Shown piece by piece: positions 1 to 8,723 of a stretch of 39,595 bases of DNA (the first letter of the stretch is position 1; each line of letters opens with the position of its first letter). The stretch lies in sequence record PZ544513.1; one strand, written 5' to 3'. The notes beneath the pieces are model-generated. The model saw only the letters and a program-made list of their open reading frames with translations, did no database searches and was not told the DNA's origin. Source of the stretch: a phage. Position numbers and translations under genes: made by a program.

Positions 1-1731
1 ATGACTGCACGTATGAAGTCAGACTTCGTGTTCTTCCTGTTCGTCCTGTGGAAAGCTCTGTCGCTCCCAGTCCCGACTCGCTGTCAGATTGACATGGCGA
101 AGAAACTATCGGCTGGGGACAACAGGCGCTTCATCCTACAGGCGTTCCGTGGTATAGGGAAGTCCTTCATTACGTGTGCCTTCGTTGTCTGGAAGCTATG
201 GAACAACCCAGACTTGAAGTTCATGATTGTGTCGGCCTCAAAGGAGCGAGCCGATGCTAACTCCATCTTCATCAAGCGAATCATCGACCTCATGCCTCAG
301 CTTCAGGAACTCAAACCTAAGCAGGGACAGCGAGATGCGGTTATTAGCTTCGACGTGGGACCTGCCAAGCCAGACCACTCACCTTCGGTTAAGTCCGTTG
401 GTATCACTGGTCAGTTGACTGGTAGTCGTGCTGACATCCTGATTGCCGATGACGTGGAGGTTCCGAACAACTCAGCGACTCAGGCTGCACGAGACCGTCT
501 ATCAGAGCTTGTGAAAGAGTTCGACGCTATCCTGAAGCCGGGAGGTACGATCATCTATCTGGGTACTCCTCAGAACGAGATGACCCTGTACCGTGAGCTG
601 GAAGGTCGTGGGTACACCACTACTATCTGGCCCGCTCGTTATCCACGCGACAGGAAGGACTGGCAGTCTTACGGCGACCGTCTGGCTCCTATGCTTCAGG
701 CAGAGCTGGAAGAGGACCCTGAGTCCTTCTACTGGCGTCCGACTGATGAAGTACGCTTCGATGATACGGACCTGAAGGAACGTGAGCTGTCCTACGGTAA
801 AGCTGGCTTCGCTCTACAGTTCATGCTTAACCCGAACCTGAGTGATGCCGAGAAGTACCCTCTTAAGCTCCGTGACCTTATCGTAGCCGACTTGGACCCA
901 GCGTCCAGCCCAATGGTCTACCAATGGTTGCCGAACCCTCAGAACAAGCGTGAGGACGTTCCTAACGTTGGACTCATGGGTGACTCGTACCACACGTATC
1001 AGACTGTAGGTTCTGCCTTCAGCTCATACACCCAGAAGATTCTGGTCATTGACCCTAGTGGTCGTGGTAAGGATGAAACTGGATATGCGGTACTGTACCA
1101 GCTCAACGGCTACATCTTCGCTATGGAAGTTGGTGGTATGCGTGGTGGTTATGAAGACTCTACGCTGGAAGCCTTGGCTAAGATTGGTCGTAAGTGGAGG
1201 GTAAACGAATACGTCATTGAGGGTAACTTCGGTGATGGTATGTACCTTGAGCTATTCAAGCCTGTATCGGCCCGTATCCATCCTGCGGCTGTAACTGAAG
1301 TGAAGAGTAAGGGTCAGAAAGAACTACGCATCTGTGACGTTCTGGAGCCTATCATGGGGTCTCACAGACTTATCGTTAACGCTGCTGCTATCGTCCAAGA
1401 CTACCAGACAGCCTCTGACAAGGATGGTGTTCGTAACCCTATCTACTCTCTATTCTATCAGATGACACGTATCTCTCGTGAGCGTGGAGCCTTGGCACAC
1501 GATGACCGACTTGATGCGCTGGCTATCGGTGTACAGTTCTTCGTTGAGTCGATGGCTAAGGATGCCAACAAAGGCGAACGTGAAGTCACTGAGGAATGGC
1601 TGGAGGAACAGATGGAGAACCCACGGAAAGGCTTCGAGTCCATCCACACTGAGTTCTGGGACAATGGGGTCCGGGTAACTCACGATACGGACGACGAGCT
1701 TGGACTAGGGTCATACGTTACGTTCCACTAG
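1..1731 (+). CDS. 19: Large terminase subunit (T7 gp19-like), 5-prime truncated by the window edge; the start lies at 39563..39595
   Basis: 576-aa ORF colinear with recalled T7 gp19 ([30 protein letters not shown] Walker A-like, [26 protein letters not shown]); reading frame is open to window position 1 and continuous with the ORF starting at 39563. Confidence 0.93.
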
Positions 1732-1825
1732 CTGAATGAATAACTATAGGTGAAAGCTGCATGAATAAGCAGTTAGTAACCTATAGTTACTACCAGTCTA
1801 ACATACTGTTTTACAAGGAGTTTGG

Positions 1826-1848
1826 ACTTAACTATCACTATAGGGAAG
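1826..1848 (+). promoter_or_regulatory. Phage RNAP promoter (phi-OR-like) cTTAACTATCACTATAGGGAAG, +1 near 1843
   Basis: Matches the 11-member promoter family of this genome and the T7 promoter core CACTATAGGGAGA; lies downstream of gene 19 near the right genome end, as phi-OR does in T7. Confidence 0.7.
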
Positions 1849-2028
1849 ACCCCCGGTTACTTATAGTATTACTGTAGTGAATATACATATGCAGACTTTA
1901 TGCAAGACCTTAGGAGGCAGACTCCGAGTTCTTACCTAAGGCTTGCACAGATGGAAGGAGGGTGATATTAATCATAATCCCTCCAATACAGATAGTCACC
2001 GACCATAGATACAGGAGGTATGTAGCAT

Positions 2029-2187
2029 ATGGCAAAGACCAAAGCTGTACTTAAAGCTCTGGCGACCAATCGAGCTACATACAGGTTTCTTGCTGCTGTT
2101 CTACTTGCTGCTGGCGTTACTGCTGGAAGTCAGTGGGTCGGGTGGGTCGAGACTCTCGTATGTTCTCTGGTGTCTGAGTGTCGTTAA
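2029..2187 (+). CDS. Small hydrophobic protein (52 aa), gene 19.5-like by position
   Basis: ATG at 2029 preceded by AGGAGG (2013-2018); 52 codons, stop TAA 2185-2187; hydrophobic core LAAVLLAAGVTAG; lies between gene 19 and the terminal repeat; not in the ORF track because under 60 aa. Confidence 0.4.
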   Translation: MAKTKAVLKALATNRATYRFLAAVLLAAGVTAGSQWVGWVETLVCSLVSECR

Positions 2188-2437
2188 CGCCGTAATGGTA
2201 ACAATCAACGAAAGTAAGACCTAAGGTCAGTTCATAGCTGACGCTACTCTACTGACCTTAGCTACTGTAGTCAAGGACTTTAGGTAACACCTTAAAAGAA
2301 GCTCACTTAGGGTCATCCTACTTATTGGTCTATCCTAGTGTCGCCTGACCTACGGTCCTTGACCTACAGTAGCTGGTTCCTAAGGAGGGACGATGAGTTT
2401 TTGACCAAAAGTTTGAGACCACATCTCACAGTTCAAG

Positions 2438-2586
2438 AACATCAAGTCTCCCCCATAGGCCTCTTTCAGTCCAGACCAAAGGCCCTACCCCAGTCTATCA
2501 TAAGGTTGGACCGATGGTCAAGACTTCAGGTCAACGATAGGTTGTGGCTATGGCTTAGGGAAGGACGATAGGTTGGGACTATGGGT
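2438..2586. repeat. Direct terminal repeat, copy 1 (right genome end), 149 bp
   Basis: 2438-2586 is identical to 2588-2736 by direct reading (period 150 bp, one spacer base at 2587); T7-like genomes carry direct terminal repeats of about 150-230 bp. Confidence 0.8.
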
Positions 2587-2587
2587 A

Positions 2588-2736
2588 AACATCAAGTCTC
2601 CCCCATAGGCCTCTTTCAGTCCAGACCAAAGGCCCTACCCCAGTCTATCATAAGGTTGGACCGATGGTCAAGACTTCAGGTCAACGATAGGTTGTGGCTA
2701 TGGCTTAGGGAAGGACGATAGGTTGGGACTATGGGT
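2588..2736. repeat. Direct terminal repeat, copy 2 (left genome end), 149 bp
   Basis: Exact tandem copy of 2438-2586; followed by short-repeat array and host-type promoters as at the T7 left end. Confidence 0.8.
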
Positions 2737-2959
2737 CTGTCTTTGAGTCTCTATCTGTATCAGACCTTGAGTCACTACCTACAGTCTAACTACCTACAGT
2801 CATCGACCATCGGTAATGCCGCTACCTACAGTCATCGACCTACGGTTAATAGACACAAGGATATAGACTTAAGGTCTAATACATGTTAGTCAAAGACTAT
2901 ATCCTCTTAGTCACTATGGGGCCGACGATAGCTTAATCAATATTATTTAAGATTACCTA

Positions 2960-2989
2960 TTGACTACAGGTCCAGACTATGGCTTAATA
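2960..2989 (+). promoter_or_regulatory. Putative host sigma70 early promoter (TTGACT, 17 nt spacer, CTTAAT), weak -10
   Basis: -35 TTGACT at 2960-2965 with an AT-rich upstream tract; located between the terminal repeat and the first early gene, like T7 A1-A3. Confidence 0.25.
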
Positions 2990-3100
2990 GCTTCCGTCAA
3001 CACGACACGGCAACAACCGGATAGTGAAGACGCCGGGTCATCCCGGTTAAGTAGACAGCCTGATAAGTCATACGAACAACAGGCAGATGACAGAAAGTAG

Positions 3101-3130
3101 TTGACAAGATGTACCGACTTAAAGTAGTAT
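3101..3130 (+). promoter_or_regulatory. Putative host sigma70 early promoter (TTGACA, 18 nt spacer, TAGTAT)
   Basis: TTGACA 3101-3106, TAGTAT 3125-3130 followed by GTACCACAT, reminiscent of T7 A2/A3 early promoters; correct position and orientation for early transcription. Confidence 0.45.
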
Positions 3131-3243
3131 GTACCACATCAACACGAAACAACGGTGACGACCAACACTGAAACGGTCTACCTGAAGTCCTCTGACTGAA
3201 GGGAATGCTCTTTAACAATCTGGATAAACTCTTAATGTGCGCC

Positions 3244-3310
3244 GACAGTGATTAACTACAGGGTCTTTGAGTCTACATCTGAAGGCCCTGACTGATAGTC
3301 ACTAGCAACC
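3244..3310 (+). other. Putative RNase III processing hairpin, early-region repeat copy A
   Basis: About 66-nt element CGACAGTGATTAACTACAGGGTC...GGCCCTGACTGATAGTCACTA with imperfect inverted symmetry (AGTGA/TCACT and CAGGG/CCCTG stems with internal loop); three copies, each immediately upstream of an early gene. Confidence 0.5.
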
Positions 3311-3324
3311 TAAGAGGATTCATT

Positions 3325-3603
3325 ATGAGACTGAACAAAGCTACAGCAGAAGCCTTTCGCAAGGAGCTTGAATCAAGATTATTGTGTGGAGTGGCGGAAG
3401 GAGCCGCTCGATATAAAGAGAATGGTCTAACGTTCAAGCGCTTTATGTGGGATTGCTATCACGGAGTGGGCCATAAAAAGTCGCAGGAAATAATCACCAG
3501 CAACAATGCGGAAGTGCAAGTGATAGGAGGATACATGGCTAACGTGAAGGATTCACACATAGAGACAATGCTTAAGAATGCACTTAAAGATGTAGCCTAC
3601 TAG
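3325..3603 (+). CDS. Hypothetical early protein (92 aa), first gene behind the host promoters
   Basis: ORF with RBS AAGAGGA 8 nt upstream of ATG; preceded by repeat copy A; no recognisable motif. Confidence 0.6.
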   Translation: MRLNKATAEAFRKELESRLLCGVAEGAARYKENGLTFKRFMWDCYHGVGHKKSQEIITSNNAEVQVIGGYMANVKDSHIETMLKNALKDVAY

Positions 3604-3658
3604 TGATTAACTACAGGTCGTTAGACTGATAGCGGCCTGACTGATAGTCACTAACACA
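3601..3658 (+). other. Putative RNase III processing hairpin, early-region repeat copy B (diverged)
   Basis: TAGTGATTAACTACAGG...CCTGACTGATAGTCACTAACA shares both flanks with copies A and C; immediately upstream of the ocr homolog. Confidence 0.45.
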
Positions 3659-3683
3659 TAATTAACTTTGAGAGGATATAACT

Positions 3684-4190
3684 ATGGAACGTAATGCTAA
3701 CGCATACTATGAGCTGCTGGCTGCAACCGTTGAGGCATTTATCGAGCGTATTCAGTACGACCACCTGACTCAAGATGATGACTACAGCGATGCGCTGCAT
3801 GAGGTCGTAGACGGTCAGGTTCCACACTATTACCACGAGATTTTTACGGTGATGGCTGCTGATGGTATAGACCACGAGTTCGAAGACTCTGGGCTGATGC
3901 CTGAAACCAAGGACGTAACGCGTATCCTACAAGCTCGCATCTATGAGGCGCTTTATAACGATGTGTCTAATAGCTTGGATGTAGTCTGGTTTGAGGATGA
4001 AGAGGCAGAAGAAGAGGATGAATATTGGGTAGTTGACGCTAAAACAGACGCAATAATTGTGCAAGCTGTAGCTCTTGAGGTCGCTACTGCATGTACCAAG
4101 GTTAACTATGCGGCAGGTCGCCACCTGAAGGTGGAAGACATCAATGATAACGTAGTGTTCGACCCTGCGGCTGAGGACTGCGAGCGATGA
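3684..4190 (+). CDS. ocr: Ocr-like DNA-mimic anti-restriction protein (T7 gp0.3 homolog) with a C-terminal extension of about 50 aa
   Basis: Core [43 protein letters not shown] is near-identical to recalled T7 Ocr ([43 protein letters not shown]); acidic; 168 aa versus 117 aa in T7. Confidence 0.88.
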
Positions 4191-4357
4191 TAACTTACGG
4201 TTTATGCCAGCACCACGTCACCAACGCCCGACTTATGGTCAAGACCGGGCGGTTAACCCATGATGAGACTATGCGTCTCCTGAAGGTGGTCTACAAGCGC
4301 CGCAAGCGCATACACGACAGTTTGCACGCTGAGGATAACCAACAATGCTCCAGATAA
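4187..4357 (+). CDS. Hypothetical small basic early protein (56 aa)
   Basis: ATG at 4187 overlaps the ocr stop (ATGA); 56 codons to TAA 4355-4357; under the ORF-track size cutoff. Confidence 0.25.
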
Positions 4358-4422
4358 CTTATAGCAGCGAACAAGCGTTCTACGACGGGTGCTACGAGAT
4401 GATGAAGCGCGATACTTGCTAG

Positions 4423-4488
4423 CGACAGTGATTAACTACAGGGTCTTTGAGTCTACATCTGAAGGCCCTGACTGATAGCCACTAACAA
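4423..4488 (+). other. Putative RNase III processing hairpin, early-region repeat copy C
   Basis: Identical to copy A except 2 positions over 66 nt; immediately upstream of the ORF at 4503. Confidence 0.5.
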
Positions 4489-4502
4489 CTGAGAGGACAG
4501 AT

Positions 4503-4730
4503 ATGAACACAATCACTGGTGCCATAGCCAAAGGTTTTCGAGCAATTTTCAGTGAATCGCAAGAAGTATGCACCAATCATAAATTCGTACTTTCTTGCGT
4601 AGTAGGGGACGAGTTTGACGGATTCGATAAACTGGTGGTTTGCGACCATTGTGGACAAGAGGCTATCCAACGCTCAAACGGTAAATTTGAATTAATAGAC
4701 GATAGCCTTACAGAAGGAGACGGCGAGTAA
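4503..4730 (+). CDS. Hypothetical early protein (75 aa), possible Cys-rich zinc-binding motif
   Basis: ORF with RBS GAGAGGA; contains C-x8-C ... CDHC cysteine pairs; no homolog recognised. Confidence 0.6.
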   Translation: MNTITGAIAKGFRAIFSESQEVCTNHKFVLSCVVGDEFDGFDKLVVCDHCGQEAIQRSNGKFELIDDSLTEGDGE

Positions 4731-4862
4731 CCTAGATAAACAGGAGAGAACCAAATCGTAGCTTGACCATAACGCTGACAGGTGGATACTGAGTGATAGA
4801 CGAGAGGCCGTCGAATGATAGGTGGCCTCAAAGATTATCACTTGAATTAATAGGAGTTAACT

Positions 4863-4952
4863 ATGAGTGTGGGATATTGGGTCTGCCTAGCGCCAGTTAT
4901 CTGGATGATAGGCTATGGGTTATACGACTGTATTAAACGGAAATCACTATGA
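4863..4952 (+). CDS. Hypothetical small membrane peptide (29 aa)
   Basis: ATG 4863 preceded by TAGGAG; hydrophobic WVCLAPVIWMIGYGLY; stop overlaps the next ATG (ATGA at 4949-4952). Confidence 0.3.
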   Translation: MSVGYWVCLAPVIWMIGYGLYDCIKRKSL

Positions 4953-5146
4953 GTATTGCACTATTGATAGCCATAGGCTATGGACTTATCGCATACGTGC
5001 TGGTGAGAGACATCAACAAGGCACGTAAAGTCTATAAATTCAACTATGTACGTATGGTCCGCTGGACTGTACGTCAACCTAACGGACGATTCCTGCGCAA
5101 TTTAGCGAACGTCTGGGATATAGCAACTCTTGGGAGCAAACTGTAA
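4949..5146 (+). CDS. Hypothetical early membrane protein (65 aa)
   Basis: N-terminal hydrophobic segment IALLIAIGYGLIAYVLV followed by basic tail; translationally coupled to neighbours. Confidence 0.55.
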   Translation: MSIALLIAIGYGLIAYVLVRDINKARKVYKFNYVRMVRWTVRQPNGRFLRNLANVWDIATLGSKL

Positions 5147-5472
5147 TGAACAAGTCATACGGGATTAATCTGGTACACTCTATGGACGCAGAAATGAACA
5201 TGTTAAGCCTACTGGCTACCGGGTATCGTCACGGAACGTCAAGTCACACCGCACGTCAACAGCAGGAGAGGGACCGTGTACTACAGGCGCGACTCCGGGC
5301 AGAGGGCCATAAGTCCGAACTGATGTGTCTGGCGTATGGCGGACGACCGATCACTGACGATGGTAAACTTCTGGTATCAGGCTGGAAGGCGATAGACCAA
5401 CGGTCAACCATCAAGCACACGACTCACGGTGACTTCAGCCATCTCCACGCTAACCCACTGATATGCAAGTGA
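5146..5472 (+). CDS. Hypothetical early protein (108 aa); sits where T7 has gene 0.7 but has no kinase motifs
   Basis: ORF starts at TAATG overlap with the previous gene; no recognisable domain. Confidence 0.55.
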   Translation: MNKSYGINLVHSMDAEMNMLSLLATGYRHGTSSHTARQQQERDRVLQARLRAEGHKSELMCLAYGGRPITDDGKLLVSGWKAIDQRSTIKHTTHGDFSHLHANPLICK

Positions 5473-5477
5473 TTATG

Positions 5478-5500
5478 ACTTAACTATCACTATAGGACTC
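5478..5500 (+). promoter_or_regulatory. Phage RNAP promoter-like sequence upstream of the RNA polymerase gene (ACTTAACTATCACTATAGGACTC)
   Basis: Full match to the promoter family core except GGAC instead of GGGA at +1..+4; about 70 bp upstream of gene 1. Confidence 0.5.
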
Positions 5501-5569
5501 AAGGTCTAAGACTCCAAGTGAAAGACCAAAGAGACTTTAAGTGAAAGACTAATAACAAGGACTTTAAGT

Positions 5570-8251
5570 ATGAGCGTCATCTCTATTGACAAACACGACT
5601 TCTCTGATGTGTCGAACGCCATTGAGCCGTTTAACCTGCTGGCTGACCACTACGGGCAAGACCTTGCAGTCAAACAGCTTCAGCTTGAGCATGAGGCCTA
5701 CACTGAAGGTGAGCGACGTTTCATCAAGAACCTTGAGCGTCAGACCGAGCGAGGGGAACTGGCAGACAATCAGGTCGCCAAGCCTTTGATGCAGACTCTG
5801 GTTCCTAAGATTGCGCAAGCCGTCAAGGAGTGGCACGAAGGTCCAGACGGGAAGCTGTCAACCTCACGTCCGAGCGTAGCGTTCACCATGTTAAGCACTG
5901 AAGAGAAGGCCGTCAAGGACCGCTCTCTTCGCATCTCCTGCGAGTCTGCTGCGGTTATCATACTGAAGGTCATCCTCTCCAAGCTGGTCAAGCCTGAAGG
6001 TATACCGATTACACCGATGGCCTCCGCGATAGGTCGCACACTTGAGGATGAAATCCGATTCGGTCGCATTCGTGACAAGGAGAAGGAGCACTTCAAGAAG
6101 GCGATAGCTGATAACCTGAACAAGAGAGCCGGGGCATCATACAAGAAAGCCTACATGCAAGCGGTCGAGACATCCATGCTGGAGCAAGGCCAACTAGAAG
6201 ATGCGTGGGGAACTTGGAGTCCGACCGAGGCTGTCCACGTTGGAATCAAGATGCTGGAGATTGTCATACAGTCAACACAACTGGTCGAGCTTAAGCGTTA
6301 CGGTGCTGGCAATGCAGCGGCTGACGTTGAGATGGTCCACCTGTCAGACTTCTGGGTCAAGAAGATGGCACAACGAGGATTCAGCCTTGCGGGTATCGCC
6401 CCAGTCTACCAGCCTTGCGTCGTTCCGCCTAAGCCGTGGACTGGTGTCGTAGGCGGTGGGTATTGGGCCAAAGGTCGAAGACCATTGCCACTGATTCGCT
6501 TAGGGTCTAAGTCTGCGGTAGCACGTTATGAAGACGTATACATGCCTGAAGTCTATGAAGCTGTGAATATCATCCAGAATACACCTTGGAAAGTGAACAA
6601 GAAGGTATTGGACGTGGTGAACAGGGTCGAGAAGCTGAACAACACGCCTATTAATGACATCCCTCAGATGGAACCGCTGAAGCCTGAGGACTATGCTGGT
6701 GAAACCGAGGAGGAACTCAAGGCATGGAAGAAGGCTGCTGCTGGTATCTATCGCCGCGAGAAGGCCAGACAGTCACGCAGATTATCACTGAGCTTTATCG
6801 TTAACCAAGCAAACAAGTTCTCTCAGTTCAAGGCCATCTGGTTCCCGTACAACATGGATTGGCGAGGTCGTGTCTACGCTGTCCCGATGTTCAACCCTCA
6901 GGGTAACGACATGCAGAAGGGGCTCCTGACTCTGGCAGTCGGCAAGCCTATTGGTGCTGACGGTTTCAAATGGCTGAAGGTCCACGGTGCAAACTGTGCG
7001 GGTGTCGATAAAGTCACCTTCGATGAGCGCATCAAGTGGGTGGAAGACAACCACGAAAACATCATGGCTGCTGCTAAGGCACCGATGGATAGCATTGAGT
7101 GGTGGGGCAAGTTAGACTCTCCGTTCTGCTTCCTAGCGTTCTGCTTCGAGTATGCTGGCGTAATGCACCACGGCTTGTCTTACTCCTGCTCGCTGCCGAT
7201 AGCGTTCGATGGGTCCTGCTCTGGGATTCAGCACTTCAGCGCTATGCTTCGCGACCACATCGGTGGACATGCAGTAAACCTGACGCCATCCGGTAAGGTC
7301 CAAGACATCTACCGCATCGTGTCTGACCGCATTGAGGAGGAGCTTAAAGTCCTACTGGTTAACGGTACGGACAACGAGATGGTAACTCACGAGGACAAGA
7401 AAACTGGTGAGATTACCGAGCGTCTCAAGCTGGGGACACGAGAGCTTGCCCGTCAGTGGCTGACCTACGGTATGTCACGAAAGGTCACTAAGCGTTCGGT
7501 CATGACTCTGGCCTACGGGTCGAAAGAGTACGGCTTCGCAGACCAAGTTTACGAGGACATCGTGATGCCAGCGATTGACTCAGGGTCTGGCGCTATGTTC
7601 ACTGAACCAAGCCAAGCATCTCGCTTCATGGCTAAGATGATTTGGGAAGCTGTGAGTGTGACCGTAGTTGCTGCGGTTGACGCGATGAAATGGCTTCAGG
7701 GTGCTGCCAAGCTGCTTGCTGCTGAAGTGAAGGACAAGAAGACTGGAGAAATCCTGAAGCCTTGTCTTCCGGTACACTGGGTCACACCTGATGGTTTCCC
7801 TGTCTGGCAGGAATACCGAAAGAAGGACACCACTCGTCTGAACCTGATGTTCTTAGGGTCATTCAACCTTCAGCCTACCGTCAACAAAGGCACGAAGAAA
7901 GAGCTGGACAAGCACAAGCAGGAGTCAGGCATTAGCCCGAACTTCGTCCACTCACAAGATGGTAGCCACCTCCGCAAGACTGTAGTCCACACGCACCGCA
8001 AATATGGCGTGATGTCATTCGCAGTGATTCACGATAGCTTCGGGACCATCCCGGCTGACGCTGAGTATCTGTTCCGTGGAGTCCGTGAGACGATGGTCGA
8101 GACCTACCGCGACAACGATGTGCTGCTTGACTTCTACGAGCAGTTTGAATACCAGCTTCACGAGAGCCAGAGAGACAAGTTGCCTGAGCTTCCTAAGAAA
8201 GGTAAACTGAATATCGAAGACATCTTGTCTTCAGACTTTGCATTCGCTTAA
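5570..8251 (+). CDS. 1: Single-subunit DNA-directed RNA polymerase (T7 gp1 family)
   Basis: 893 aa; colinear with T7/T3 RNAP throughout (PMFQPCVVPPKPWTG, FPYNMDWRGRVYAVPMFNPQGNDM, AFCFEYAGV.HHGLSY, DGSCSGIQHFSAMLRD, NFVHSQDGSHLRKTVV, IHDSFGTIPADA, C-terminal DFAFA). Confidence 0.98.
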   Translation: MSVISIDKHDFSDVSNAIEPFNLLADHYGQDLAVKQLQLEHEAYTEGERRFIKNLERQTERGELADNQVAKPLMQTLVPKIAQAVKEWHEGPDGKLSTSRPSVAFTMLSTEEKAVKDRSLRISCESAAVIILKVILSKLVKPEGIPITPMASAIGRTLEDEIRFGRIRDKEKEHFKKAIADNLNKRAGASYKKAYMQAVETSMLEQGQLEDAWGTWSPTEAVHVGIKMLEIVIQSTQLVELKRYGAGNAAADVEMVHLSDFWVKKMAQRGFSLAGIAPVYQPCVVPPKPWTGVVGGGYWAKGRRPLPLIRLGSKSAVARYEDVYMPEVYEAVNIIQNTPWKVNKKVLDVVNRVEKLNNTPINDIPQMEPLKPEDYAGETEEELKAWKKAAAGIYRREKARQSRRLSLSFIVNQANKFSQFKAIWFPYNMDWRGRVYAVPMFNPQGNDMQKGLLTLAVGKPIGADGFKWLKVHGANCAGVDKVTFDERIKWVEDNHENIMAAAKAPMDSIEWWGKLDSPFCFLAFCFEYAGVMHHGLSYSCSLPIAFDGSCSGIQHFSAMLRDHIGGHAVNLTPSGKVQDIYRIVSDRIEEELKVLLVNGTDNEMVTHEDKKTGEITERLKLGTRELARQWLTYGMSRKVTKRSVMTLAYGSKEYGFADQVYEDIVMPAIDSGSGAMFTEPSQASRFMAKMIWEAVSVTVVAAVDAMKWLQGAAKLLAAEVKDKKTGEILKPCLPVHWVTPDGFPVWQEYRKKDTTRLNLMFLGSFNLQPTVNKGTKKELDKHKQESGISPNFVHSQDGSHLRKTVVHTHRKYGVMSFAVIHDSFGTIPADAEYLFRGVRETMVETYRDNDVLLDFYEQFEYQLHESQRDKLPELPKKGKLNIEDILSSDFAFA

Positions 8252-8266
8252 CAACAGGAGAAGTAT

Positions 8267-8497
8267 ATGTCAATGAAACTTGTAGCACACAACAGGGTAT
8301 TCAACGATGGGTCGGGACGTTGCCATGTAGAGCTGACTTATAAGGATTTAATCATTCTCCGAGACAGATTACAGTCGGGTGTGACTGGGTGGATTCAACC
8401 TAACGAGTACAACCTTATAGCTTCGATTGATGAAGTTCTTAACGCGTGGATGGAAGACGAGCGCATTCAGTATCCGTCATTCCCTCTAATTAGATAA
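8267..8497 (+). CDS. Hypothetical protein (76 aa)
   Basis: ORF with RBS GGAGAAG directly after gene 1; no T7 counterpart recognised. Confidence 0.5.
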   Translation: MSMKLVAHNRVFNDGSGRCHVELTYKDLIILRDRLQSGVTGWIQPNEYNLIASIDEVLNAWMEDERIQYPSFPLIR

Positions 8498-8507
8498 GGA
8501 GAGAGTT

Positions 8508-8723
8508 ATGAAATTTGCACACAAGCATACTGGCGTTAATGGTGGGACTCAAATCGTGACCGTAACAGAACACAACGGCAAGGGTCTGGTGAAGACCACG
8601 GTCATCCCTACCGAGATGTCCAAGCAGCTTAACATCCCGTTCAAGACTCTTGTATATCTGGTCGAGTCCAGCCACGAGAAGTACCTGAAGGACGCAGTGT
8701 CCAAGCTGGAGCAGGCCAAATGA
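8508..8723 (+). CDS. Hypothetical protein (71 aa)
   Basis: ORF with RBS AAGGAGAGAG; no T7 counterpart recognised. Confidence 0.5.
   Translation: MKFAHKHTGVNGGTQIVTVTEHNGKGLVKTTVIPTEMSKQLNIPFKTLVYLVESSHEKYLKDAVSKLEQAK

Follow-up and report, generated by a model that had tools for sequence, protein, structure and literature searches.

The class I (early) region of T7 consists of genes 0.3, 0.4, 0.5, 0.6, 0.7 and 1, and its RNase III sites are R0.3, R0.5 and R1. To our knowledge, no function has been established for gp0.6 of T3. In the hyperplastic regions of T4-type phages, small accessory ORFs each follow a repeated regulatory stem-loop and appear to have been shuffled among related phages through recombination at these repeats (promoter-early stem-loop, or PeSL, mini-cassettes). 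T7 Gp0.4 inhibits FtsZ polymerisation (Kiro et al. 2013, as cited in PMC9372555); its residues W28 and L35 contact FtsZ, and W28 is needed for binding (PMC13423816). The T7 kinase is a broad anti-defence factor (PMC13645617). Infection by K1F leads to filamentation with multiple Z-rings, the inhibitor being reported as unknown (PMC9372555).

Here, we analysed the early block of the phage sequence PZ544513.1 (39,595 nt in all; the window). The window carries the genome of a Kayfunavirus (K1F-like) phage in circularly permuted form; deposited phages match it at 99% identity, and its early region is 99.2% identical to those of Escherichia phage vB_EcoP-PM129 and relatives. Deposited close relatives annotate the counterparts of the ORFs described below as hypothetical proteins (GenBank). 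The K1F left end aligns at window position 2424/2588, the physical left end is at ~2588, and a 149-nt tandem repeat corresponds to the two terminal repeats in joined form. With the left end so mapped, the expectation that this block enters the cell first was borne out. The interval is very probably the left-end class I operon of a K1F-like phage genome, swappable accessory cassettes included. As such, the early block is ordinary for a K1F-like, T7-family coliphage.

Comparison with the K1F and T7 early regions

K1F (DQ111067, Kayfunavirus) has the same gene order: an extended ocr, a coupled ORF of 49-56 aa ('Gp0.35'), a small membrane ORF, '0.6' and a homologue of ORF108, followed by a phage promoter and gene 1, with no kinase. 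It differs in lacking ORF92, ORF75 and ORF29, in filling the slot ahead of ocr with an 81-aa ORF (phrog_10124), and in having a different 55-aa membrane ORF ahead of '0.6'. With T7, the block shares its place at the left end, host promoters (here candidates) ~500 nt in, ocr with a coupled gene behind it (putatively of the gp0.4 family), a basic protein coupled to a small hydrophobic peptide encoded before it, and RNase III hairpins (here RNase III-type by architecture) that separate the units. Unlike T7, it lacks homologues of gp0.5, gp0.6 and gp0.7, begins with an additional gene, ORF92, carries ORF75 as a further addition, and has a phage promoter directly before gene 1; a fold scan found no R1-type hairpin at that position. 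The features are collected in Table 1.

Table 1. Features of the early block and its flanks in PZ544513.1
Feature	Position	Strand	Remarks
Candidate sigma-70 promoter	2960..2988	+	TTGACT, 17 nt, CTTAAT; ~370 nt from physical left end
Candidate promoter, best sigma-70-type match	3101..3130	+	TTGACA, 18 nt, TAGTAT; 10/12; ~514 nt from left end
Hairpin Ra, RNase III-type	3247..3303	+	Lower stem, asymmetric internal loop, upper stem; fold ~-23 kcal/mol
ORF92	3325..3603	+	First gene into cell; basic (pI 9.0), mostly helical; variable cassette
Hairpin Rb, RNase III-type	3601..3653	+	-24.5 kcal/mol, z -5.15; architecture matches T3 R0.5
ocr (gene 0.3)	3684..4190	+	168 aa; DNA-mimic domain and C-terminal extension of ~55 aa
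ORF56 (K1F 'Gp0.35')	4187..4357	+	Divergent, putative gp0.4-family protein; candidate FtsZ/cell-division inhibitor
ORF25	4345..4422	+	5' stump of 41-aa gene (phrog_33188 family); truncated by ORF75 cassette insertion
Hairpin Rc, RNase III-type	4427..4483	+	Second 67-nt repeat copy, one stem mismatch; 5' end of ORF75 cassette
ORF75	4503..4730	+	Acidic (pI 4.5) CxxH...C...CxxC mini-protein; phrog_32657; mobile cassette
3' remnant of split 41-aa gene	4760..4792	+	Reads SLTITLTGGY*; aligned to CHX131 and TH20
Hairpin Rd, RNase III-type	4793..4841	+	-16.6 to -20.4 kcal/mol, z -3.2
ORF29	4863..4952	+	Single-pass small membrane peptide; variable; coupled to ORF65; position as T7 gp0.5
ORF65	4949..5146	+	T3 gene 0.6-family by similarity; N-terminal membrane helix, basic tail (pI 11); genus core
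ORF108	5146..5472	+	His-rich basic protein; conserved core residues 25-108; phrog_7066 at 3e-46
Phage RNA-polymerase promoter	5480..5496	+	Perfect copy of scan motif; directly upstream of gene 1
Gene 1, T7-type RNA polymerase	5570..8251	+	63% identity to T7 gp1, full length; right boundary

Promoters and RNase III-type hairpins

The leftmost candidate promoter block is kept in all 12 Kayfunavirus early regions compared; it was read from the sequence, and its -10 element is weak, below the criteria of the promoter scan. The second candidate, whose distance from the end compares with the T7 A1 promoter at 498, is identical in five of the relatives, variant in four and not found in three (K1F, TH20 and AN24P4). 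A sigma-70 scan of the sequence gave no enrichment over shuffles (8 found, 7.0 expected). The phage promoter motif, TTAACTATCACTATAGG, was matched 11 times in the genome (0.06 expected). The copy before gene 1, which together with its leader is nearly invariant in 12 phages, is the first rightward of the mapped left end, the motif scan giving none between that end and 5480; the copy with the lowest coordinate (1828) follows gene 19 and is close to the physical right end.

Four T3/T7-type RNase III hairpins split the early block into four units. Ra and Rc are the first and second copies of a 67-nt repeat, D4 (3243-3309 and 4423-4489, 97% identical), and the dot-bracket architecture of Ra is the same as that of the annotated T3 sites R0.3, R0.5 and R1. 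Rb overlaps the stop codon of ORF92, while Rd is present in 8 of the 12 early regions compared. The start coordinate of the original prediction, 3244, coincides with the opening base of the first hairpin repeat; the four hairpins, the 25-aa ORF at 4345-4422 and the phage promoter at 5480-5496 are additional to the features listed there.

Core genes and variable cassettes

Four early genes form the genus core: ocr with its C-terminal extension, ORF56 (a divergent, putative gp0.4 homologue), ORF65 and ORF108. The ocr product matches the Pfam ocr family (4.3e-30) and phrog_2568 (4.4e-54) and is 51% identical to T7 gp0.3 over residues 8-113; K1F also has the extension, which AN24P4 lacks. ORF65 is the K1F gene labelled '0.6'. 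By blastp it matches T3 gp0.6 (E 3e-8) and its counterpart in Mera (4e-11), and phrog_2385 includes both the T3 protein and ORF65. Like T3 gp0.6 (NP_523298), it is a 65-aa protein with a hydrophobic helix at the N-terminus, an RDxxK segment and a (P)NGRF motif, and is encoded just ahead of the last gene before gene 1; identity is ~38%. On sequence similarity, ORF65, one of the two small membrane proteins of the original prediction, is thus clearly assigned to the T3 gene 0.6 family. Kinship with T7 gp0.6A/B was rejected, the proteins being unrelated on comparison. The ORF108 core is found in Kayfunavirus and neighbouring phages (144 clusters, 224 phage records).

The variable units, each a hairpin, ribosome-binding site and small ORF, are those of ORF92, ORF75 and ORF29; ORF25 belongs with them as the stump left where the ORF75 cassette interrupted another gene. 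As had been proposed, ORF92 is an extra gene upstream of ocr: T7, K1F and most sampled Kayfunavirus relatives lack it there, and across relatives the slot holds ORF92, an 81-84-aa ORF, both or nothing. ORF29, which like ORF65 has one N-terminal hydrophobic helix, is kept in six relatives (62-100% identity); 1RS has a partial match of 19 residues. It was rejected as a homologue of T7 gp0.5, hhalign against gp0.5 giving nothing.

The gene of which ORF25 is the stump is found in its full 41-aa form in CHX131, 1RS, TH20 and PDP351P3; a sigma-70-like scan match at 4763-4790 falls within its 3' remnant. The inserted ORF75 has five invariant residues (C23, H26, C32, C47 and C50) and gave five clusters at 90% identity, and one at 50%, among 1.84 billion (1.84e9) representatives. 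It also occurs in unrelated Kagunavirus siphophages (87% nt and 93% aa identity, pN/pS 0.07), where it sits in the replication module, and has another location in 1RS and AN24P4. Between the window and PM129, exactly one 323-bp unit of hairpin plus ORF differs, with both breakpoints inside the repeat.

From this and a presence/absence matrix of the cassettes in 11 relatives, it is partly shown that cassettes have been gained, lost and moved, presumably by recombination; in at least one case the breakpoints fall within the repeated hairpin sequence. The 323-bp indel is the one case in which exchange at the hairpin repeat is shown; the ORF75 insertion does not have both of its junctions in hairpins, and Rc differs from the hairpin preceding ORF75 in PSK1. 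The units resemble the T4-type PeSL cassettes in that a repeated stem-loop stands ahead of each small accessory ORF and in their apparent shuffling, but the repeat here is an RNase III-type processing hairpin rather than a promoter plus stem-loop.

The missing kinase and a possible anti-defence role

The claim that homologues of gp0.7, gp4.5 and gp5.9 are missing was confirmed by tblastn, PHROG profiles and a kinase HMM. When 56 T7 proteins were compared with the window by tblastn, gp0.4, gp0.5, gp0.6A, gp0.7, gp4.5 and gp5.9 gave nothing better than E 0.05, whereas T7 0.3, 1, 1.2, 1.3 and others matched strongly. The kinases of T7, T3, AP10, Mera and KpV289, and an HMM built from them, found nothing in the six-frame translation, and no window ORF falls in the PHROGs of gp4.5 (2254) or gp5.9 (9014). 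The kinase is absent from K1F and from all 11 related early regions examined; in none of the 11 is the space from ocr to gene 1 large enough for it. The missing gp0.7, gp4.5 and gp5.9 are common to every Kayfunavirus early region examined and are not special to PZ544513.1.

Since the T7 kinase is broadly anti-defence (PMC13645617), phages that lack it have to rely on something else. The early ORFs left unassigned, ORF75 and the small membrane proteins in particular, might be new anti-defence or host-takeover effectors that offset the missing kinase, gp4.5 and gp5.9. They are the first genes into the cell; ORF92, ORF75 and ORF29 are cassettes of patchy distribution; the protein families are narrow and phage-restricted; and ORF75, under strong purifying selection, has passed between unrelated groups of phages with glycan-dependent wild E. 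coli hosts in common. However, profile searches gave no similarity to a characterised anti-defence protein or domain, and ORF65 and ORF108 are genus core rather than accessories. ORF65 is also present in T3, AP10, Mera and KpV289, which encode the kinase, and is therefore no substitute for it; AP10 and Mera also carry ORF92 alongside the kinase. We regard compensation by new effectors as possible, though a tentative proposal. It overlaps with the class I operon reading, from which it departs only by assigning the ORFs a specific role in counter-defence. Under the operon reading, the remaining small proteins would be host-takeover or counter-defence accessories, and position and patchy distribution make an anti-defence role for them plausible.

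ORF56 and the gp0.4 family

ORF56 matches phrog_5058 at 4.4e-25, T7 gp0.4 matches the same family at 9e-5, and both align to the same part of phrog_25044. In hhalign, ORF56 and gp0.4 align over 41 columns (P 2e-5 to 6e-5; probability 65-76%). In a decoy test with 51 targets, the two best were gp0.4 of T7 and of AP10 (P 2e-5 and 2e-4), followed by Mera_5, itself a phrog_5058 member (0.003), with all others at 0.017 or above. Both proteins are of ~50 aa, and each is encoded directly after gene 0.3, overlapping it and translationally coupled. Identity is 32%, with conservation of the YGL motif, M21/V22, G25, M32, L35, K36 and Y39.

These profile matches point to ORF56 being a remote homologue of gp0.4, the T7 FtsZ inhibitor. 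Alternatively, the likeness may be fortuitous or functionless, and another early product (candidates being the membrane-anchored ORF65/ORF29 pair, or ORF108) may bring about the K1F type of division inhibition. W28 of Gp0.4, needed to bind FtsZ (PMC13423816), is replaced by His in ORF56; ORF56 is strongly basic (pI 10); BLAST and tblastn gave no similarity to T7 gp0.4; and short helical proteins are prone to chance alignment. Against this stand the reciprocal PHROG cross-hits, the rank of the two gp0.4 proteins among the decoys, identical synteny and coupling at similar length, and the presence of the family in every K1F-type early region (11 of 11 relatives). We therefore consider a fortuitous or functionless likeness the less likely reading and retain remote homology.

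Coding status of the early ORFs

The ORFs originally listed at 3325 (92 aa), 4503 (75 aa), 4949 (65 aa) and 5146 (108 aa) are all present, as are the smaller ones at 4187 (56 aa) and 4863 (29 aa). Their coupling is real: start and stop codons overlap at ocr/ORF56 (ATGA), ORF29/ORF65 (ATGA) and ORF65/ORF108 (TAATG). The description as orphan genes does not hold in the strict sense, an existing PHROG being matched by about seven of the eight early ORFs (about six of seven apart from ocr) and ORF29 having its homologues in related early regions; the PHROG search of window ORFs gave no match for ORF29 and ORF25. The statement that none could be assigned, for which sensitive homology searches had been proposed as the check, fails for ORF56 and ORF65 and stands for ORF92, ORF75, ORF29 and ORF108, to which Pfam, NCBIfam, PHROG annotation and PDB profiles gave no assignment. 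A fold search with ORF92 also gave none, and structure models of ORF92 and ORF108 were poor (AF2 pLDDT of 58 for ORF108).

It is highly improbable that some or all of these ORFs, short as they are (25-108 aa), are chance open frames in a leader: all eight early ORFs are under purifying selection against divergent homologues in related phages (pN/pS about 0.07-0.5; 0-0.49 for ORF108, 0.3-0.5 for ORF29, the values for ORF25 and ORF29 resting on small counts), ribosome-binding sites and start/stop coupling are in place, ORF92 and ORF65 are kept across genera and ORF75 across phage families, and ORF25 is the only demonstrable truncated remnant. That ORF108 is a degraded remnant of the gp0.7 kinase or its host shut-off domain, as its position immediately upstream of gene 1 might suggest, is effectively refuted by hhalign of its family against four gp0.7 proteins (a single column, probability 0.3%), by hmmsearch (E above 0.6), by the empty kinase HMM search and by its membership of a separate, well-conserved family that is under purifying selection.

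Predicted early expression and host takeover

On the model of T7 and T3, host RNA polymerase would start at the candidate sigma-70 promoters ~370-510 nt from the first-entering DNA end and would read through the whole block into gene 1, and RNase III would cut the polycistronic RNA at the four hairpins into four messages: ORF92; ocr, ORF56 and ORF25; ORF75; and ORF29, ORF65 and ORF108. Ocr would block type I restriction and related DNA-sensing defences. ORF56, if it acts like T7 Gp0.4, would bind FtsZ and stop cell division. As a by-product of the analysis, ORF56 thus emerges as a candidate for the FtsZ inhibitor of K1F, whose published division block it would account for if it does bind FtsZ.

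Genome identity and position of the early region

A megablast search with window positions 1700–5700 matched 411 phage records. The closest were Escherichia phages vB_EcoP-PM129, PM131, PM137 and PM139 (99.2% identity at full coverage), followed in the ranking by other Kayfunavirus, that is, K1F-like Studiervirinae. With 56 T7 proteins as tblastn queries, the T7 gene order was recovered from gene 19 (window 1–1731) round to gene 18.5, so that the window is a T7-like genome in circularly permuted form. Positions 2438–2586 and 2588–2736 hold the two identical copies of a 149-nt tandem direct repeat; PM129 has a single one, and K1F aligns with its left end at 2424–2586 and again from 2588 onward. 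This arrangement points to the terminal repeats of a linear genome having been joined head to tail. As judged from the repeat and the K1F alignment, the window is a rotated linear genome whose predicted physical ends are at about 2587/2588, with the left end at ~2588. The interval 3244–5570 is the first coding DNA to the right of this mapped left end, as expected from the original prediction that the block enters the cell first. Further non-T7 ORFs lie elsewhere in the genome (table).

The interval represents an ordinary early operon of Kayfunavirus that is already in the databases. The initial observation was confirmed as a whole: every ORF was recovered where it had been placed (ORFs are named here by their length in amino acids), as were the couplings of ocr to ORF56 (ATGA), ORF29 to ORF65 (ATGA) and ORF65 to ORF108 (TAATG). 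The 25-aa ORF25, the RNA hairpins and the phage promoter had not been listed. We compared the ORFs at the codon level across 11 Kayfunavirus early regions (the relatives, K1F included), three other Studiervirinae and one Kagunavirus locus. Wherever substitutions sufficed, pN/pS was 0.07–0.5 for every ORF, the counts being small for the 29-aa and 25-aa frames. The GenBank counterparts of all the ORFs are 'hypothetical protein'; the ORF56 homologue in K1F is 'Gp0.35' in UniProt. Scans of all ORFs against Pfam, NCBIfam and PHROG returned only unannotated PHROGs, ocr excepted, and PDB profile searches with the ORF75, ORF92, ORF108 and ORF56 families gave nothing meaningful. No transcriptome or proteome of K1F-type phages was found in the literature searched.

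Features of the early region, with related loci in the window and in other phages
Feature	Position	Strand	Remark
Sigma-70-like block	2960–2988		TTGACT, 17 nt, CTTAAT
Best sigma-70 match	3101–3130		TTGACA, 18 nt, TAGTAT
Hairpin Ra	3247–3303		
ORF92	3325–3603		phrog_9817
Hairpin Rb	3601–3653		
ocr	3684–4190		
ORF56	4187–4357		
ORF25	4345–4422		
Hairpin Rc	4427–4483		
ORF75	4503–4730		
3' remnant of 41-aa gene	4760–4792		
Hairpin Rd	4793–4841		
ORF29	4863–4952		
ORF65	4949–5146		phrog_2385
ORF108	5146–5472		phrog_7066
Phage-polymerase promoter, perfect copy of motif TTAACTATCACTATAGG	5480–5496	+	directly upstream of gene 1
Gene 1 (RNA polymerase)	from 5570		
Other phage promoters	1828, 8801, 10668, 11633, 14007, 19761, 22582, 23562, 28345, 35631	+	
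Non-T7 ORF	8267–8497		after gene 1; phrog_28104
Non-T7 ORF	8508–8723		after gene 1; phrog_8082
Non-T7 ORF, 164 aa	12840–13334		between genes 3 and 3.5; phrog_16385
Non-T7 ORF, 54–65 aa	15846–16043		between genes 4 and 5; phrog_13039
Kagunavirus ORF75 copy	vB_EcoS-22664BS2 locus 2973–3245		between helicase-primase and exonuclease genes
phrog_10124 cassette with own RNase III-type hairpin	PM129 locus 1894–2286; K1F ~770–1030; PSK1 1711–1956		
Slot upstream of ocr: ORF92			window, AN24P4
Slot upstream of ocr: 81–84-aa ORF, phrog_10124			K1F, PSK1, R1, LM33P1, 1RS
Slot upstream of ocr: ORF92 + 81–84-aa ORF			PM129
Slot upstream of ocr: empty			IME177, CHX131, PDP351P3, TH20

Promoters and predicted transcript units

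Counted from the left end, the top sigma-70 match lies at ~514 nt, compared with 498 for the T7 A1 promoter, and the sigma-70-like block to its left is kept in 12 of 12 early regions. Because the sigma-70 scan as a whole was not enriched over shuffles, the use of these candidates as promoters is presumed.

In each of the four intergenic hairpins, a lower and an upper stem are separated by an asymmetric internal loop. In dot-bracket form the four look essentially like R0.3, R0.5 and R1, the annotated RNase III sites of T3, with which they also have arm sequence in common. Ra and Rc, the first and third, represent one 67-nt repeat whose two copies are 97% identical. An Rfam search of 1700–5700 gave no matches, and no model fitted the hairpins. 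By architecture, all four would belong with the RNase III-type sites of T7/T3 early mRNA; predicted cuts at these positions would give the units ORF92, ocr+ORF56+ORF25, ORF75, and ORF29+ORF65+ORF108.

Eleven phage promoters resembling the polymerase motif occur in the genome, all on the same strand. Reading rightward from the mapped left end, the copy before gene 1 is the first of these, and hence the ORFs to its left would be host-transcribed class I genes. Whereas T7 gene 1 is without a phage promoter, gene 1 in the window has its own, which implies self-amplifying expression of the polymerase gene. Across 12 Kayfunaviruses, this promoter and its 73-nt leader hardly vary.

Absence of the gene 0.7 kinase

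That the genome encodes no homologue of the T7 gene 0.7 protein kinase, as originally proposed, was borne out in six-frame translation: tblastn with five kinases (T7, T3, AP10, Mera and KpV289) gave E >1, and an HMM built from the same proteins gave E ≥3. In tblastn searches of the window, T7 gp0.4, 0.5, 0.6A, 0.7, 4.5 and 5.9 had no match at E <0.05. The accompanying claim that gp4.5 and gp5.9 (in T7, the Lon and RecBCD inhibitors, respectively) are missing also held; their best matches (E 0.28 and 0.054) were both non-syntenic, and no ORF in the syntenic slots matched phrog_2254 (gp4.5) or phrog_9014 (gp5.9). Two small ORFs were checked in the stretch from gene 3.5 to gene 5 and belong to phrog_1950 and phrog_13039, and gene 5.7 abuts gene 6 directly.

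The kinase is likewise absent from all 11 relatives, in which ocr and gene 1 are 1.0–1.5 kb apart. 'Kayfunavirus' is not one of the ten commonest organism names in the 913 phage records that match gp0.7, although at least 17 records bear the name. Taken together, these two observations make kinase absence look like a genus trait. The T7 kinase was recently found to be a broad anti-defence factor (PMC13645617). ORF65 and ORF92 are present in kinase-encoding phages too and so are not simple kinase substitutes, and the possibility that ORF108 is a fragment or remnant of gp0.7 was rejected, the comparison showing no relation. Depletion of Ser/Thr/Tyr from early proteins was considered as a kinase signature; the difference (T7 early 0.126 versus late 0.151; window early 0.140 versus late 0.155) is too small to interpret.

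By domain match and identity, the ocr assignment is unambiguous: residues 8–95 match Pfam PF08684 with 104.6 bits against a cutoff of 25 (E 4.3e-30), and the protein is 51% identical to T7 gp0.3. A C-terminal extension of ~55 aa (residues ~113–168, window 4020–4187), which has no family match of its own, is common to K1F and most relatives. It is absent from the Ocr of Kayfunavirus AN24P4 and therefore behaves as a separable module. The 'protein kinase' label of IME177 QYC97317 (IME177 locus 2026–2529) was rejected, as this is a mis-annotated Ocr; the same mislabel, which could falsely suggest gp0.7, occurs in the Vec13 and ZH4 records.

ORF56 as a putative divergent gp0.4-family member

The original reading is supported in part: the region is a kinase-less early host-takeover block with an extra first gene, and none of the present tests pointed to an anti-defence role. 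Two of the six 'unassignable' ORFs, ORF56 and ORF65, can be placed in known T7/T3 early families; ORF92, ORF75, ORF29 and ORF108 remain without assignment.

ORF56 matches phrog_5058 (4e-25), phrog_25044 (0.002) and phrog_7202 (0.14), and T7 gp0.4 matches the same PHROGs in reverse order (phrog_7202, 5e-33; phrog_25044, 9e-7; phrog_5058, 9e-5), both proteins aligning to one stretch of phrog_25044. When an 11–12-member ORF56 alignment was compared by hhalign with gp0.4 of T7 and AP10, the match spanned 41 columns at 32% identity, with P of 3.5e-5 to 6e-5. In a decoy test with 51 small Studiervirinae proteins, the top match was gp0.4 of T7 (2.3e-5), then that of AP10 (2e-4); third was Mera_5 (0.003), itself a phrog_5058 member, and the remainder scored ≥0.017. 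The similarity is invisible to BLAST. Position agrees: ORF56 follows ocr and overlaps its stop codon (4187–4190), T7 0.4 starting on the last base of 0.3, and its length is close to ~50 aa. The PHROG cross-matches, hhalign scores, decoy ranking and synteny together lead us to file ORF56, and with it K1F Gp0.35, as a putative divergent member of the gp0.4 family, at the profile level only. Two FtsZ-contact residues of Gp0.4, W28 and L35, are needed for binding (PMC13423816); L35 aligns with the invariant L32 of the ORF56 family and W28 with the nearly invariant H25.

The assignment matters since K1F blocks division without a known gene. Dhanoa et al. described filamentous, multi-ring cells upon K1F infection, an FtsZ-inhibition phenotype, and reported that K1F 'lacks the 0.4 genes', that BLAST gave no similarity to kil or gp0.4, and that the inhibitor was unknown (PMC9372555). 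We found no later identification of it in the literature searched. The question is now directly testable, as the profile comparison points to the 49–56-aa gene right after ocr.

Genes of phrog_5058 (gp0.4-like) were also seen in Klebsiella Przondoviruses, at KpV289 locus 1495–1844 and Mera locus 1571–1753. In KpV289, whose genome also encodes the kinase, a pair of neighbouring paralogues follows a SAM hydrolase gene instead of ocr.

ORF65, ORF29 and the split 41-aa gene

ORF65 is, on sequence grounds, a clear homologue of T3 gene 0.6: blastp gives E 3e-8, both proteins are 65 aa with an N-terminal hydrophobic helix, and both match phrog_2385 (3e-31 and 9e-30, respectively). A by-eye resemblance of ORF65 to T7 gp0.6B (PNG..AN) was unsupported, hhalign of the ORF65 family giving a probability of <1%, and ORF29 as T7 gp0.5 fared no better (P 0.31, probability <1%). 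For T7 gp0.5 and gp0.6A/B, tblastn of the window gave E >0.1, and the PHROGs differ.

ORF29, a single-pass peptide, is clearly matched by homologues in six of the relatives and partially in a seventh; in K1F its slot is filled by a 55-aa membrane ORF unrelated to it. Over 26 nt around their starts (4843–4868 and 4929–4954), ORF29 and ORF65 are 77% identical, and the membrane helix of each contains IGYGL (ORF29 residues 15–20, ORF65 residues 8–13). Profile comparison did not support ORF29 as a duplicate of the ORF65 N-terminus (P 0.036, not significant). The similarity at the starts could be an old partial duplication.

CHX131, 1RS, TH20 and PDP351P3 carry an intact 41-aa gene of the phrog_33188 family. 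ORF25 corresponds to its first 25 codons, and the last 10 (SLTITLTGGY, then stop) are still legible downstream. The two parts are ~337 bp apart, a stretch taken up by hairpin Rc, ORF75 with a ribosome-binding site, and 29 nt, and so the ORF75 cassette inserted into this gene and split it. A sigma-70-like match at 4763–4790 falls inside the 3' remnant.

ORF75 and its siphophage copies

ORF75 forms only five 90%-identity clusters among 5.8 billion proteins and, by HMM search, a single 50% cluster among 1.84 billion representatives. Invariant in the family are C23-x2-H26, C32 and C47-x2-C50, and the C-terminal tail is acidic. Two conserved CxxC/CxxH knuckles, putatively metal-binding, make the protein zinc-ribbon-like; there is a weak match to the ADK lid zinc knuckle (E 0.034). 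The gene is common to about 30 Kagunavirus siphophages (K1ind1, Golestan, Bas70, Bas73 and others), with 87% nucleotide identity, 93% amino acid identity and pN/pS of 0.07. Homology between the window and Kagunavirus is limited to the ribosome-binding site, ORF75 and ~15 nt past its stop, and within Kayfunavirus the gene occupies two different positions. The phages of both genera infect wild E. coli in a glycan-dependent manner (PMC11990801), and these common hosts would explain the opportunity for exchange. It is conceivable, though we consider it rather unlikely, that ORF75 is a new counter-defence or host-takeover effector tuned to capsulated/O-antigen E. coli hosts and carried on a ~270-bp cassette swapped between podophages and siphophages, with ORF92 and ORF108 perhaps similar, helping the kinase-less Kayfunaviruses against host immunity.

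Turnover of early cassettes

All 11 relatives have ocr, ORF56, ORF65 and ORF108, while ORF92, the 41-aa gene, ORF75 and ORF29 vary. ORF108, found in 224 phage records, has a conserved core (25–108) and a variable N-terminus; its structure model was unusable (pLDDT 58). ORF92 was found in 62 phage records (31 protein clusters), all of them T7-like phages or ~40-kb contigs. Its place in the early region differs: the window and AN24P4 have it as the first gene, Yersinia phage AP10 has it behind 0.3/0.4, and in Klebsiella Przondoviruses it precedes the SAM hydrolase gene. Pfam scans of each member of the ORF92 and ORF108 alignments gave only scattered sub-threshold matches.

The slot between the two hairpins upstream of ocr has four states among the window and its relatives (table); the 81–84-aa ORF found there is unannotated in K1F. 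The window and PM129 show one clean difference, a 323-bp unit of hairpin plus 84-aa ORF that is absent from the window. The 61 nt at 3244–3304 match both of the hairpins that flank the unit in PM129, which places the breakpoints inside the repeat. A single event of hairpin-mediated gain or loss is thus directly documented, and from it we infer hairpin-mediated exchange as a general mechanism.

As a genomic feature the interval is of limited importance, being a standard early operon of a well-sampled genus with all its ORFs deposited as hypothetical. Of most use are the placing of ORF56/K1F Gp0.35 in the gp0.4 family, the mobile cassettes led by ORF75, and the hairpin-plus-ORF units. The Kayfunaviruses provide a natural kinase-less comparison group, for which ORF92, ORF75, ORF29 and the relatives' 81–84-aa ORF make a short list for counter-defence screens, and the units of RNase III hairpin plus small ORF suggest how T7-like phages shuffle their early accessory genes.
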